25,721 bases of DNA from IMG/VR virus record IMGVR_UViG_3300012942_000033, positions 99,512 to 125,232 of that record; one strand, 5' to 3'. The stretch comes from a virus. Its lineage: Duplodnaviria > Heunggongvirae > Uroviricota > Caudoviricetes. Positions 5,977 to 25,680 of this stretch are shown here, piece after piece. Position 1 is the stretch's first letter. Every line of letters starts with the position of its first letter. The position numbers and the translations under genes are program-made. The notes under the pieces are model-generated. The model made no database searches. It had not been told where the DNA came from and saw nothing but the letters and a program-made list of their open reading frames with translations.

Positions 5977-6447
5977 ATGATTTGGGTCTGGCTCTCCGTC
6001 TTGGCCGCTTCAATTGGTCTATCATATACCTGGTGGCCTAGGGATAAGCGTAGCTGGAAGGTGGTAGCGTTTACCGCCCTTACGTTCTCCGCTACCATCA
6101 TGCTTGGCATTTATATCACTCAGGCCTGGCCCGTTGAGCACTATAGGATCGAGAAGATCCAGAAGAAATACGTCAATCCACCCAAGGTCATCTATAAGGA
6201 TCGGATCGTCTATCGGATTCCTGGTAAGGAATTTGAACCCCTCAATGCTGCTGACATTTGTAAGGGTTCACGTCCGGTAAAACTACTCACCATTGATATT
6301 AGCAAAAATGGTGATGATTCAACCACTTGGCTTATCGTTAAGCCTCTAGGTTCTGAGATTAAGATCACCTGCTATATCAGTGGTAATTTGGATCATTTCT
6401 GGCAGGTTGGTGATATCGTTCAATTTACGAATGGTAAGCCCGAATAG
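5977..6447 (+). CDS. hypothetical membrane protein (two N-terminal TM segments)
   Basis: 156 aa ORF, hydrophobic N-terminus, GAGG RBS. Confidence 0.75.
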   Translation: MIWVWLSVLAASIGLSYTWWPRDKRSWKVVAFTALTFSATIMLGIYITQAWPVEHYRIEKIQKKYVNPPKVIYKDRIVYRIPGKEFEPLNAADICKGSRPVKLLTIDISKNGDDSTTWLIVKPLGSEIKITCYISGNLDHFWQVGDIVQFTNGKPE

Positions 6448-6489
6448 CCGAGACATCTCCATTATTTTCACACTGGATGAAAAAAGGGC

Positions 6490-6518
6490 TTGACGCTTTC
6501 ACCTTTCTATCCTAGACA
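6490..6518 (+). promoter_or_regulatory. sigma70-type promoter of the non-coding unit
   Basis: TTGACG (6490) n17 TAGACA (6513), A-tract upstream. Confidence 0.65.
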
Positions 6519-6528
6519 GATGATACGG

Positions 6529-6608
6529 CGACGATAGCGCGCAACGATAGGGCATAGAAGTTAGACGACGGTCTAACAGTTCAGCCCGACAATAGCGCGC
6601 AACAATAG
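6529..6608 (+). repeat. 22-nt direct repeat x2 (CGACRATAGCGCGCAACRATAG)
   Basis: Copies at 6529-6550 and 6587-6608, 20/22 identical, both differences G/A. Confidence 0.85.
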
Positions 6609-6880
6609 CCGGATGTCTTCCAGCTATCAGGCGAGCGGCTGGGCGGGTCATGAGACCAAGAGGGGTGAAACACCCAAGCGTTTGGTAGTTTTAATCCGAA
6701 GCATAGGCCGCGCGGCTATGTTAGGAAGAAGATGGGCCCCGCTCTTCGGAAGGTGCAGGCGGGTTTATTGCTCGGGGTAAGAACCCTAATGGAACTTCCG
6801 CCAATGTGGAGGGGTGACGTGGGCATTAAGTTGTCGGGTCACAGAGTTTCCGATGCCGTCGAGTTTACTCCGGCTCACTA

Positions 6881-6915
6881 GGCCTCGGTAGGGAAACCTA
6901 CCGGGGCCCTTTTTT
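6881..6915 (+). terminator. strong intrinsic terminator
   Basis: GGCCTCGGTAGG-GAAA-CCTACCGGGGCC followed by a T-tract. Confidence 0.9.
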
Positions 6916-6972
6916 CCACTTGAAACATCGGATCTTGGTGTTACGTTCCTGTAGCATTCAATAGGAGTCGTT

Positions 6973-8694
6973 ATGAAACTCGCCGATAGCCCATTCCAAA
7001 AGGGCCTCTACATGAAGGTTCCTAAGGGCACTCCGCTATTCAGCCGTTGGCATGGTGCGTTGAATGAGGTCACTAACCGCGACGTGATCGTGGAAATCAG
7101 TGATGTCAGGCTCCCCAATCCTAATGATATGCTGACTCAAGGGGAGAAGGATGAACGGCAGAAACGATACGATGAACTACGGGCCCAATTCATCGCGGAG
7201 CGGGAAAAGCTCTGCGTCAAGGTTCATCACCCTGCGGTAACCCATAATCCAGGCACTCCTCGAGCCTTCACGCAACAGGCCTTCGATAGCATGGAGGTTA
7301 CCGAGGAAAACAAACCAGCTCTCGACACCCTTTGGCATCAGAATGATCAGGCCGAGAAAGCCATCACAGCCGAATATAAGGCGCTAGGTGAGTCGCGCTT
7401 TGGGCAGGATGAGGTTCTGGTCAGTTGGAGCAAAGACAGCAAGACTGCCCCTGCCAAGTATCTAGCCCTGGCGGATAAACCCGAGGTTCGCAAGAAGCAG
7501 CCCAAGGTTAACATCCGACAACAGATGGTTCCAAAGTCACGTTGGAAGGTGACCGAGGACAAGGACATCTACTATGGTGCCGAGAACCCTGCGTTCACAC
7601 AAGCTATTGAAGCCTGGCACACAGCGAATCCTCGACCCGGCAATACAGCCACTAATGCCGCCCATGATGCGTGGCACAACGCCCGTAATGCAAACCAAGT
7701 GAACCTCGAGAAGACTCTGGGGACCTATACACCTACACTATACGCGACGATCAAGGCGGGAACGATTTTCGAGGTTACTGGTAAGTTCCTGAGCTATTGG
7801 AGACCATTTGGTTGGGGTGGTCAGCATTATGGTAACATCTGTTCCGCCCTATTCGATGGTGCTAAGAATGACATTGGTCTCGAATACAACCAGATCAAAG
7901 ACATTATCGAACCAGTATCCATTCCAACGGTGAAGGCCTTTGTGCTGCGTCATAAGTCAACTGGTCAGTTTTATGCGAGTTACGAATATAGTGAAAAGAA
8001 GACTGAGCTGGTCAAGGAACAAGCTGGTGCGGATGGTGCCCCAGCTGATCAGGTTCGGTGGATGCGCGGTTGGGAAGCCAATCATGCAAATACGTTCATG
8101 AAGGGGAAGAAGTGGGATAATCTTGGTAAGGCCAAGACCAGCATCCTCATGATGACTGGCTACTATAATGGCCTACCAGGAGCCACTGAAGCCCTCCCCG
8201 AATGGTCGGGTGGTGATGCTACTATGACCGCAGATGACCTCCGCGAATATGAACTCGTGGAGTTTGACAAACTGAGTCGATCAGAGGTCGGAGTGGTCGC
8301 TGAATTTCAGGATTGGTTCGAACGTAGTTGGCAACTGCGCGAGCTTACCATGAAGTATGGCTCATCGGTGCGCCAGGTCTATAAGGCTCTTGAGAAGGCC
8401 AAGATGCTCGACCAGCAGAAGGGTGTAGCTGTATTCACAGTCGTTGATGAAGATGCTCTAGACCTGGTGGGTTATTGGGGTAATCGAACCGCACTCACTG
8501 ATGAGGATAAAGATGAGATCAAACGAGCCCTCTCGAGTGTCAAGGGTAAGTTCAAGCAAGCTGTTGATCATAAGTCGGCAGCGGTATCCTTCCCCGATAA
8601 GGGATCAGCTATGATGTTCAAACTGGCCTATAATGGTAACCTCAAGGTCAGCATCATTGATCTTGAGGATATGAAGGAGACGATTGGTGAGTGA
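6973..8694 (+). CDS. hypothetical protein (573 aa)
   Basis: Long ORF, AGGAG RBS, TTGAAA-n17-TACGTT promoter near 6922; no family recognised. Confidence 0.88.
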   Translation: MKLADSPFQKGLYMKVPKGTPLFSRWHGALNEVTNRDVIVEISDVRLPNPNDMLTQGEKDERQKRYDELRAQFIAEREKLCVKVHHPAVTHNPGTPRAFTQQAFDSMEVTEENKPALDTLWHQNDQAEKAITAEYKALGESRFGQDEVLVSWSKDSKTAPAKYLALADKPEVRKKQPKVNIRQQMVPKSRWKVTEDKDIYYGAENPAFTQAIEAWHTANPRPGNTATNAAHDAWHNARNANQVNLEKTLGTYTPTLYATIKAGTIFEVTGKFLSYWRPFGWGGQHYGNICSALFDGAKNDIGLEYNQIKDIIEPVSIPTVKAFVLRHKSTGQFYASYEYSEKKTELVKEQAGADGAPADQVRWMRGWEANHANTFMKGKKWDNLGKAKTSILMMTGYYNGLPGATEALPEWSGGDATMTADDLREYELVEFDKLSRSEVGVVAEFQDWFERSWQLRELTMKYGSSVRQVYKALEKAKMLDQQKGVAVFTVVDEDALDLVGYWGNRTALTDEDKDEIKRALSSVKGKFKQAVDHKSAAVSFPDKGSAMMFKLAYNGNLKVSIIDLEDMKETIGE

Positions 8695-17482: not shown

Positions 17483-17554
17483 GCCCCTGCTCGCGAATCG
17501 AGACTTGGGTCTTCTAAGCCTAAAGATGGGGTTTGACTCCCCACAGGGGCTCCA
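17483..17554 (+). tRNA. atypical tRNA-Arg(UCU) or tRNA-like RNA with a degenerate D-arm
   Basis: Acceptor GCCCCTG/CAGGGGC + T-CCA; anticodon loop CT-TCT-AA; T-arm TGGGG-TTTGACT-CCCCA; D region only 16 nt and lacking U8 and G18G19. Confidence 0.65.
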
Positions 17555-24468: not shown

Positions 24469-24544
24469 GGGGGATTAGCTCATCTGGGAGAGCGCGTGCT
24501 TTGCAAGCATGAGGTGGTCGGTTCGAGTCCGACATTCTCCACCA
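24469..24544 (+). tRNA. tRNA-Ala(UGC)
   Basis: Full cloverleaf, G3:U70 identity pair, loop TT-TGC-AA, GGTTCGAGTCC, encoded CCA, 76 nt. Confidence 0.96.
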
Positions 24545-24619
24545 AGACAGAGCGAGGAAAGAAATTTTCTCGAAATGTCGAGAAAGTGCTTGACGGATCA
24601 TTCGACAGGCATAAATAGA

Positions 24620-24908
24620 AACACAGATGCCGCTTTTGGTATCACGAGTTTTGAAAGGTAGTTTGATTTCTATGTTACACCTAGGGACCCATATGGAATG
24701 TGGAAAGGCCGGCTTGAAAGCCGTATCCTTTACCACAGCCGCTATGGGCACCGAATGGTCGCAGCGTAGTGAGCAAATTACCCGCCCGGTCTATAAGCCA
24801 AATACGCTCGATAGCGCCGGGGCCGAACCAGATGGAGGAAGTGGTTTTTAACTGCTAGCACTCCAAGAAGGTTTTAAGGCCCCGGATCCGAAAGGTTCCG
24901 GGGCTTTT
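24620..24908 (+). ncRNA. putative ~290-nt structured RNA (alternatively a leaderless 74-aa ORF 24627..24851)
   Basis: TTGACG (24590) and TAAATA (24612) upstream, terminator downstream; nested stems CCCATA/TATGGG, TGTGG-AAAGG/CCTTTACCACA, CGGCT/AGCCG. Confidence 0.45.
24876..24908 (+). terminator. intrinsic terminator
   Basis: GCCCCGGA-TCC-GAAA-GGT-TCCGGGGC then TTTT. Confidence 0.85.
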
Positions 24909-24977
24909 CATTTCAACGCTTGCGGCTTCGGCCAACAGCACAGACGCAGAAGATTTTAGAGGTCGGCGAAAAAGTTG

Positions 24978-25006
24978 TTGACACGCTCTAAAAACCCTGC
25001 TAGAAT
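24978..25006 (+). promoter_or_regulatory. strong sigma70-type promoter of the tRNA cluster
   Basis: TTGACA n17 TAGAAT with GC extension; second TTGACA at 25078. Confidence 0.8.
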
Positions 25007-25340
25007 GAGATCGGACGGAGATGTGTTAGACACAACGACGTCTTCCGAAAAGCGTAGAAAGCTCTTCGGTTAAGAGATTGACAAACTTCTGGCGAAACGC
25101 ATAGCGTGGAGTTGGTTGTAAGTCAAGTGGCACATGCGGAACGCGACTGCGGGATAGCCACTCTAAATAAACCCAAATGGGCGGCGCCGAGGATGAAACC
25201 GGTGGTGAGAACACCGGGAGTAAAATTCAGACGCAGTGATTGCGTCCTAGGGCGAGATGAGACATGATGCTCTCATCGGCGGTCAACCCAGAAGTGCCTG
25301 GGAATATAGATCGCACATCACAAACAAAAGGCCAAATCAT

Positions 25341-25416
25341 CGGGGTATAGCGCAGGTGGTAGCGCGTTCGTCTGGGGGACGAGAGGTCGCAGGTTCGAAC
25401 CCTGCTATCCCGACCA
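25341..25416 (+). tRNA. tRNA-Pro(GGG)
   Basis: CGGGGTA/TATCCCG acceptor, A73, CCA; loop CT-GGG-GG; GGTTCGAACCC. Confidence 0.95.
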
Positions 25417-25431
25417 AACAAACTGTTTCAT

Positions 25432-25516
25432 TCCGGTATGGTGAAATTGGTAGATACGGCGCACTGTTAATGCGTTGCTGAAAAGCGTGGAGGTTCGAGT
25501 CCTTCTACCGGAGCCA
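25432..25516 (+). tRNA. tRNA-Asn(GUU) with a long variable arm (85 nt)
   Basis: TCCGGTA/TACCGGA, G73, CCA; stem GCGCA/TGCGT with loop CT-GTT-AA; 13-nt variable region TGCT-GAAA-AGCG-T. Confidence 0.88.
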
Positions 25517-25603
25517 ATAGGAGCGCTGTCATCCTCCTTCCACCGTTCGGTGAGGTGGTGTTCCCGCAAAAGCGCGGGGCTAACAAAGCGACAGCAAATT
25601 CAT

Positions 25604-25680
25604 CTAGGTGTGGCCCAATCAGGTAAGGCGTTCCCTTCGGGAGGGAGAGATTGGAGGTTCGAATCCTCTCACCTAGACCA
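25604..25680 (+). tRNA. tRNA-Pro(CGG)
   Basis: CTAGGTG/CACCTAG, A73, CCA; loop TT-CGG-GA; GGTTCGAATCC. Confidence 0.93.

Follow-up and report, generated by a model that had tools for sequence, protein, structure and literature searches.

In the window analysed here, a stretch of 25,721 nucleotides (nt) from the IMG/VR phage record IMGVR_UViG_3300012942_000033 (positions 99,512 to 125,232), the 525-bp gap at 6448-6972 between two plus-strand open reading frames (ORFs; 5977-6447 and 6973-8694) was confirmed to be a plus-strand gene for a self-contained structured non-coding RNA (ncRNA). The RNA recurs in other giant phages and joins a 5' rod, whose two internal loops hardly vary while its helices covary, to a small bulged hairpin and an intrinsic terminator at its 3' end. 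The window is the final 25.7 kb of a 125-kb record, and because CheckV rates that record as 27% complete, the whole genome is expected to measure ~460 kb. As the initial annotation of this DNA had stated, the gap holds no ORF of 60 amino acids (aa) or more: the longest, of 55 aa (6613-6780), lacks a Shine-Dalgarno (SD) sequence, and a homolog search for it found none. The transcript is predicted to be ~390 nt long, with its start at ~6524-6527 and its end at the terminator at 6915.

A blastn search of the gap against GenBank phages returned nothing. The first relative, a 465-kb phage contig, was reached through a homolog of the 573-aa protein encoded downstream; its gap is 245 nt shorter and shares with the window the words GGCGACGAUA.CGCGCAACGAUAGGG and GACAAUAGCC. 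Word patterns made from these were scanned over IMG/VR, metagenomes and GTDB contigs, yielding more copies, and a covariance model (R1) built on the shared part separated true copies from chance pattern matches. Most pattern matches in the metagenomes, GTDB and IMG/VR were of the latter kind (tandem repeats, coding regions, Sodalis loci) and were rejected by the model. Moreover, when 10 loci were fetched via homologs of the 573-aa protein, nine of them carried a further copy of the core upstream. Together, 19 distinct sequences were obtained, namely the window and 18 more homologs, from 435-470-kb phages and metagenome fragments, and each of four complete genomes of 435-465 kb contains exactly one copy according to R1. 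The family is one of ~450-kb uncultivated phages. Sequence identity points to selection on the unit: in its closest relative, L005, core and promoter share 95% identity with the window, compared to just 67-80% for the flanking genes, and the core is 91% identical to that of genome G001, where nothing else within 6 kb aligns.

A run of R1 over 151 alphaproteobacterial genomes gave a single 30-bit match, which lies inside a coding region, and the RNA was not found in these genomes. Two contigs of GTDB metagenome-assembled genomes labelled 'Gammaproteobacteria' (L042, L051) are identical or near-identical to phage contigs L007 and L012, respectively, and are probably phage DNA mis-binned into bacterial assemblies. 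In the cultured Sinorhizobium phage Phosso (PV764938.1; L123, 446807-448102), a ~1.3-kb unannotated gap after a transfer RNA (tRNA) with anticodon CUA contains tRNA-like pieces and a one-loop mini-core at 448029-448070, GCC-GACGAUA-...GAAA...-GACAAUA-GGC, which R1 scores at 22.6 bits (E 0.003). Phosso also encodes Ro60 and could serve as an experimental entry point.

The conserved 5' part of the RNA folds into a rod, which in the window is made up as follows.

6524-6613, plus strand: the 5' core, or rod (R1 score 102.8 bits, fold z -6.6, covariation, loop conservation)
6526-6529/6608-6611, plus strand: helix P0 of the rod
6530-6536/6601-6607, plus strand: loop 1, a 7x7 internal loop of GACGAUA and AACAAUA
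6537-6542/6595-6600, plus strand: helix P1 of the rod, GCGCGC
6543-6549/6588-6594, plus strand: loop 2, a 7x7 internal loop of AACGAUA and GACAAUA
6550-6553/6584-6587, plus strand: helix P2 of the rod
6560-6577, plus strand: apical hairpin with a GACG loop, the tip of the rod

Across the family the rod spans ~85 nt and runs from P0 (3-6 bp) through a 7x7 loop, P1 (6 bp), a second 7x7 loop and P2 (2-4 bp) to a variable apex of 24-80 nt. The minimum free energy structure of 6524-6613 in the window is this proposed structure, and RNAalifold alone recovers P0, P1 and P2. In a plain MAFFT alignment of 10 sequences, double changes were found in 10 of the 16 pairs, a value reached by 0/500 shuffles, and 84% of the cells were paired, compared to 32-42% when the partners were slid. 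With all 19 sequences, 12/16 pairs showed double changes, again matched by none of 500 shuffles; the covariation among homologs that had been proposed as a check on the initial annotation is therefore present. For example, P1 occurs as GCGCGC/GCGCGC, GAGCCC/GGGCUC, GGGCCC/GGGCCC, GCUUGC/GCGAGC and ACGCGC/GCGGGU. Furthermore, several G-U pairs of the rod fit the plus strand only and become A.C mismatches on the other strand, indicating that the functional molecule is the plus-strand RNA and not the duplex DNA.

The loops are near-invariant while the helices drift. The 5' strand of loop 1, GACGAUA, is the same in all 19 sequences, and the remaining loop strands follow the patterns RACAAUA, RRCRAUA and RAMRAUA. 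Both loops measure 7x7 in 16 of the 19 sequences; in the other three, loop 1 is 8x8. The helices flanking the loops covary. In L115 the central G and A of loop 2 are exchanged between the two strands (GGCAAUA / GACGAUA), an exchange that fits a G.A pair conserved at the loop centre.

The unit is framed by transcription signals, and the next gene has signals of its own.

6490-6518, plus strand: promoter of the RNA gene, with a -35 element TTGACG (6490-6495), a 17-nt spacer and a -10-like TAGACA (6513-6518)
6881-6915, plus strand: intrinsic terminator, a stem-loop at 6881-6908 with 12 bp and a GAAA loop, and a U-run at 6910-6915
6920-6972, plus strand: promoter and leader of the next gene, outside the RNA, with TTGAAA (6920-6925), 16 nt ending in TGT, and TACGTT (6942-6947)
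6963-6967 and 6973, plus strand: SD sequence AGGAG within that leader, and ATG of the next gene

Both the TTGACG-n17-TAGACA promoter and the 12-bp GAAA terminator of the initial annotation were thus found. The promoter was not called by a generic sigma-70 scan, and its words carry weight only through their conservation: a script located TTGAY, 16 or 17 nt and TAnnnn at 11-15 nt upstream of GACGAUA in 18/19 homologs. From this distance, transcription is expected to start at the foot of P0. Every homolog with a 3' module has a GC-rich hairpin and a T-run at the corresponding position. After the U-run, the script detected a second promoter (TTGnnn-16-TAnnnT) in 15/19 homologs, and L010 was seen by eye to have it likewise; its 16-nt spacer usually ends in TGn, and an SD sequence follows 7-15 nt on, and then the 573-aa gene. 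The promoter of the RNA has a strong -35 (TTGACR) and a -10 that keeps only TA, and that of the 573-aa gene is a well-conserved TTGnnn-16(TGn)-TAnnnT, which suggests two promoter classes, possibly with different timing.

Compared to shuffled sequences, the whole unit folds with a z score of -4.15 on the plus strand and -3.10 on the minus strand. The signal is unevenly distributed, with z scores of -6.6 for the 5' core, -4.1 for the 3' part (6808-6915) and -0.5 for the middle (6611-6812), which contains the cUUCGg hairpin of the initial annotation and occurs in no relative. This middle and the 3' end comprise the following features.

6611-6807, plus strand: a 197-nt insert peculiar to this phage, with GAAA and cUUCGg hairpins, the TCTTCC/GGAAGA pair and the 55-aa ORF
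6808-6844, plus strand: a second accessory hairpin, GUGAC...GUCAC, closed by GGAG with UUCC of the linker in the predicted fold
6845-6874, plus strand: the 3' module, with the linker AGUUUCCGAU (6845-6854) and the bulged hairpin GCCG-UC-GAG-UUUA-CUC-CGGC (6855-6874)

The linker and the ~20-nt hairpin of the 3' module precede the terminator in 15 homologs. In the family, the unpaired linker of the module is short and reads AGUUUCCGAU or AGUAUCUCCUGUA; the hairpin after it has an outer stem of 4 bp, a U bulge of 1-2 nt and an inner GAG/CUC stem, and the GC-rich terminator follows. All four Watson-Crick forms occur at the third pair of the outer stem; since the search pattern itself demanded this pairing, the count for the outer stem is not unbiased. 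We also considered a kissing contact of the terminator loop GGAAAC with GUUUCC of the linker and rejected it, as no covariation was seen and the L002 group keeps GGAAAC with a linker that reads AGUAUC.

Between these conserved ends lies the sole variable part of the RNA, which ranges from ~10 to ~540 nt. The 197-nt insert of the window has no counterpart in any relative (five related genomes), and blastn against plasmids also returned nothing; L005 has 10 nt in its place. The TCTTCC/GGAAGA pair, which the initial annotation took to close a multibranch domain, lies inside this insert and is unsupported, because it is absent from every relative and the middle folds like shuffled sequence. The accessory hairpin at 6808-6844 and the 3' domain are 99% identical to those of G003/L005, and the hairpin is missing from other homologs. 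Other inserts were found in the linker or apex of L117, L118 and L120. Typical members measure 155-230 nt, and the minimal members L119 and L121 are ~155 nt long. The proposal of a large novel phage ncRNA therefore holds for the self-contained unit with its own promoter and terminator and for a family outside Rfam, but not for the size: ~390 nt is not a family trait, because it includes two lineage-specific inserts, and what is conserved is the ~85-nt rod and the ~20-nt hairpin.

In G001 the core is followed by ~540 nt with tRNA-like T arms and an ACCA end, which neither ARAGORN nor Rfam accepts as tRNA. This 631-nt version of the RNA, at L007:712-1342 (G001:C1:6211-6841), lies in a genomic context unrelated to that of the window. 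Positions 837-905 score 20 bits as a tRNA-like stretch, T arms lie at ~1058-1083, there with the ACCA end, and at ~1097-1120, and the RNA ends in a hairpin resembling module B, which is also its terminator. In an AT-rich phage fragment (L012/L051), the core stands 8 nt ahead of a tRNA-like gene, which ARAGORN calls as tRNA-Gly and which has no Rfam tRNA score at E<=5. The stretches shown for L012 (1086-1159) and L051 (~450-520) differ only in the anticodon loop, UUUCCUA vs UUUGGAA, so that the anticodon types are Gly(UCC) and Pro(UGG), respectively. Together, these data indicate that the linker between the rod and the 3' hairpin tolerates extra domains: two in the window, and others, some of them tRNA-like, in relatives.

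The family is new as judged from its sequence and structure, in that it matches none of the described families with which it was compared; this novelty refers to the RNA family. With Rfam 15 (4227 models) at the gathering threshold, only tRNAs elsewhere in the window were found. At E<=10, the matches in the region 6400-7000 were limited to sRNA P15 on the terminator hairpin, at 19 bits against a gathering score of 70, and to one of 13 bits; sRNA P15 was set aside, as its matches cover the terminator hairpin alone. Rfam at E<=5 found nothing on the RNA in the loci of 12 relatives, and at E<=1 nothing on the G001 copy but the 20-bit tRNA-like stretch. ARAGORN reported five tRNAs elsewhere in the window and no tRNA or transfer-messenger RNA (tmRNA) in 6448-6972. 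The Rfam scan suggested along with the initial annotation thus yielded no family match in the window or in those relatives, and tmRNA, RNase P, introns, 6S RNA and other known classes are ruled out by Rfam and ARAGORN together, in agreement with the lack of RNase P, tmRNA and intron signatures that had been noted. A full-text search of the literature for the signature words also returned nothing.

Other kinds of element were examined as well. A protein-coding gene was rejected, since the longest ORF lies inside the unique insert and has no homolog and four AUAG boxes place TAG stops in the core, as was a leader peptide, since relatives do not share the short frames over GGCGACGAUAG. A mini-array of clustered regularly interspaced short palindromic repeats (CRISPR) was also dismissed: its 'repeats' would be strands that pair with each other and covary, and its 'spacer' is a conserved hairpin with compensatory changes.

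The usual neighbour of the RNA, and no part of it, is the gene of the 573-aa protein.

6973-8694, plus strand: gene of the 573-aa protein, with 38 homologs

All 38 homologs lie in giant-phage contigs. The protein has no match to Pfam, PHROG or PDB profiles or, with its confident AlphaFold model (predicted local distance difference test score 87), in Foldseek; the model shows several domains, those rich in beta structure being separated by long helical hairpins. Xanthomonas phage XaC1 and phage Phosso have a distant counterpart of the C-terminal part. The RNA stands on the same strand just upstream of this gene in 17/19 homologs. In L113 (979-1407), an opposite-strand gene of an HNH_3 homing-type endonuclease sits exactly between the terminator and the 573-aa gene, and the RNA is intact. 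The core also occurs in two unrelated contexts, those of G001 and L012, and in G001 no homolog of the 573-aa gene was detected. The second promoter, the L113 endonuclease gene and the lack of the gene in G001 therefore argue against a role of the RNA as leader or riboswitch and against the 573-aa protein as its obligatory partner. This protein was rejected as the partner, given that it has no recognisable fold and is missing from G001. Directly upstream of the RNA promoter, a gene of 62-63 aa was observed in L002 (2535-2722), L114 (1034-1222), L116 (1058-1249) and L120 (1015-1206), with a weak match to Xre_MbcA_ParS_C, an antitoxin C-terminal domain; the window and L005 have no such gene. Elsewhere in the window, a tRNA-Arg(tct) gene at 17483-17554 runs into the beginning of a listed ORF, and four tRNA genes (Ala-tgc, Pro-ggg, Asn-gtt and Pro-cgg) are clustered at the window end, 24469-25680.

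Based on this anatomy, the best reading, which we put forward tentatively and at slightly less than even chances, is that of a trans-acting structured RNA whose twin loops dock a protein. Transcription would run from the foot of the stiff 5' rod to the intrinsic terminator. The rod, with three short helices and two pseudo-symmetric 7x7 loops related by a pseudo-dyad through P1, would present two rigid, identical loops as a two-site docking surface, some two helical turns in length, for a protein, which would probably be a dimer or bind as two copies. Completion and stability of the RNA would come from its bulged 3' hairpin together with the terminator, and the linker that joins rod and hairpin would act as an expansion slot for extra domains. 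That a protein docks there, and which one, are guesses; among the roles guessed at for the RNA (scaffold, decoy, anti-defence), a scaffold or decoy would fit the anatomy best.

A lead to the nature of the loops comes from 5S ribosomal RNA (rRNA). In bacteria, loop E, which lies between helices IV and V of 5S rRNA, is a symmetrical array of non-canonical pairs to which ribosomal protein L25 binds (PMC4408793, with reference to Leontis and Westhof 1998 and Lu and Steitz 2000). In the 5S rRNA of Peribacillus, Ignatzschineria, Reyranella and Flavobacterium, loop E reads C-GAUGGUA-G / U-GAGAGUA-G in all four, and the loops of the RNA with their flanks read C-GACGAUA-G / C-RACAAUA-G (C-AACAAUA-G in loop 1 of the window). 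Both are symmetric 7x7 loops between two helices, with C or U before and G after, both strands following RA-N-R-R-UA, and both give the antiparallel series G.A, A.U, x, G.A, x, U.A, A.R. The loop-E pair geometries used in this comparison are those known from the literature and were not computed. The word GACGAUA is presumably also that of the chloroplast 5S loop E; what was confirmed is that it occurs in a chloroplast primer. This pattern suggests that non-Watson-Crick pairs stack in the loops as they do in bacterial loop E, which is a lead and not a membership. The loops here stand two in tandem with no other 5S feature, and the Rfam 5S model (RF00001) has no match in this phage genome (G000), nor in the region at E<=10, while 13/14 control genomes match.

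Several points weigh against this view of the loops and of what they bind. Positions 3 and 5 differ, with C/A here and U/G/G/G in 5S rRNA; the likeness consists of a sequence pattern set beside the 5S crystal structure; and at one loop position A-U becomes G-U in four sequences, which fits an ordinary cis pair as well as a loop-E pair. Furthermore, a search of five phage genomes found no gene of the L25 family, and internal loops as invariant as these might just as well form a ligand pocket or sites of RNA-RNA contact.

Ro60 is another conceivable partner by analogy. In other systems, Ro60 binds misfolded 5S precursors, and its RNA partners, the Y RNAs (YrlA, RF02553; Ro60/Rsr partners), are modular, with a protein-binding helical module and, in YrlA, a tRNA-like module thought to recruit further factors. 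Ro60 (TROVE, PF05731) was found above the cut-off in 5/5 genomes with a full core (G000, G001, G002, G004, G005) and in Phosso, and the G001 copy of the RNA, with its rod and tRNA-like pieces, recalls the modular plan of YrlA. In Y RNAs, however, a stem joins the 5' and 3' ends, whereas the rod is a local 5' hairpin. The Rfam Y_RNA and YrlA models have no match in the window or the loci of 13 relatives, a bulged helix of the Ro-binding type was not seen in the RNA by eye (unscored), and a tRNA-like module is absent from the RNA of the window by Rfam and ARAGORN, being found only in some relatives (G001, L012/L051). The co-occurrence with Ro60 proves little, because no Y-RNA model matches, the Ro60 gene (in the region of G000:3555-4499) lies ~100 kb from the RNA and in no case is such a gene adjacent to it, and the phages are related; it may simply reflect their shared ancestry. 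That the twin-loop rod mimics 5S loop E, captures a protein recognising loop E or 5S rRNA (host bL25/CTC or phage Ro60) and thereby re-tunes ribosome assembly, the stress response or RNA quality control is an unlikely extension by analogy, in which the variable tRNA-like inserts would recruit further factors, as in YrlA.

Apart from protein docking by the twin loops, the same anatomy might be read in other ways. If the 5' rod and the 3' hairpin with its terminator were end-caps against 5'-end-dependent and 3' exonucleolytic decay, the RNA would be a stabilised carrier and its active part would lie between them, in the inserts and tRNA-like modules. Such a carrier would account for variation being confined to the stretch between the conserved ends, for the pieces ending in ACCA in G001 and for the closeness of rod and tRNA-like gene in L012/L051. 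However, L119 and L121 carry no cargo at all, protection calls for a stable helix and not for two invariant 7x7 loops, and the insert of the window is unique and folds no better than shuffled sequence, so that we regard a carrier as rather doubtful. Rather doubtful, too, is a base-pairing small RNA (sRNA), in which the linker (AGUUUCCGAU, or AGUAUCUCCUGUA in the other subgroup) or CUCC of the 3' hairpin would pair with messenger RNAs, perhaps at SD sites, with a chaperone at the U-tailed terminator. The layout is indeed sRNA-like, in that the RNA has a promoter to itself and a conserved unpaired stretch of short length precedes a hairpin and a Rho-independent terminator, and AUCUCCU of the L002 subgroup is complementary to AGGAGAU ribosome sites, which are common in these phages. 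Against it, five phage genomes contain the complement of the linker no more often than a reversed control, and the only exact matches there are the RNA gene itself; UUCC of the linker in the window and L005 is predicted to be paired with GGAG of the accessory hairpin; and the rod, the most conserved part, would be left unexplained.

A cis-acting leader of the 573-aa gene, riboswitch or attenuator, in which the rod would be the sensor and the terminator would set read-through, is quite improbable. Invariant loops between covarying helices look like an aptamer, a terminator follows, and the gene is next on the same strand in nearly all homologs (17/19); yet a conserved promoter (-35, 16 nt, -10) separates terminator and gene, the opposite-strand HNH gene intervenes in L113, the core (91% identical) occurs without the gene in G001 and before a tRNA-like gene in L012, and no alternative antiterminator pairing was seen. 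Hardly credible is a DNA-level element, with the four ACRATAG boxes as iterons or operators of a DNA-binding protein in an origin or regulatory region. The boxes are four near-identical 7-mers forming two pairs 58 bp apart, but compensatory changes between them preserve pairing, the G-U pairs would be A.C on the other strand, a promoter and a terminator frame the unit, and the 13-bp box spacing is off helical phase.

The RNA was also compared with other known RNA systems. Like GOLLD (RF01998) and ROOL (RF03087), large 'ornate' RNAs of phages and prophages without a known function, it is phage-borne, stand-alone, structured and sometimes beside or fused with tRNA-like elements; different from them, it has no sequence or structure match to either, is far smaller, consists of a rod and hairpins with no pseudoknot detected, and is single-copy. 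The order of promoter, structured RNA with internal direct repeats, terminator and protein gene is also that of type III toxin-antitoxin loci (ToxI - terminator - toxN). However, the repeats of this RNA form the two sides of a single hairpin instead of tandem 36-nt units, and the next gene has its own promoter and no ToxN-like or other recognisable fold; the RNA is also found where that gene is missing.

Genes related to translation and RNA repair are numerous in giant phages, but to our knowledge the non-coding RNAs of these phages are almost unexplored. The present data define a compact RNA family with covarying helices, two invariant loops and a slot for extra domains. At ~90 nt, its rod lends itself to synthesis, to use as a bait and to mutation of a few positions, which makes the function directly testable. 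Rod, linker and hairpin together accept inserts and might be of use as a natural RNA scaffold, and if the loops do copy 5S loop E, they would represent an apparently undescribed case of viral mimicry of an rRNA protein-binding site.

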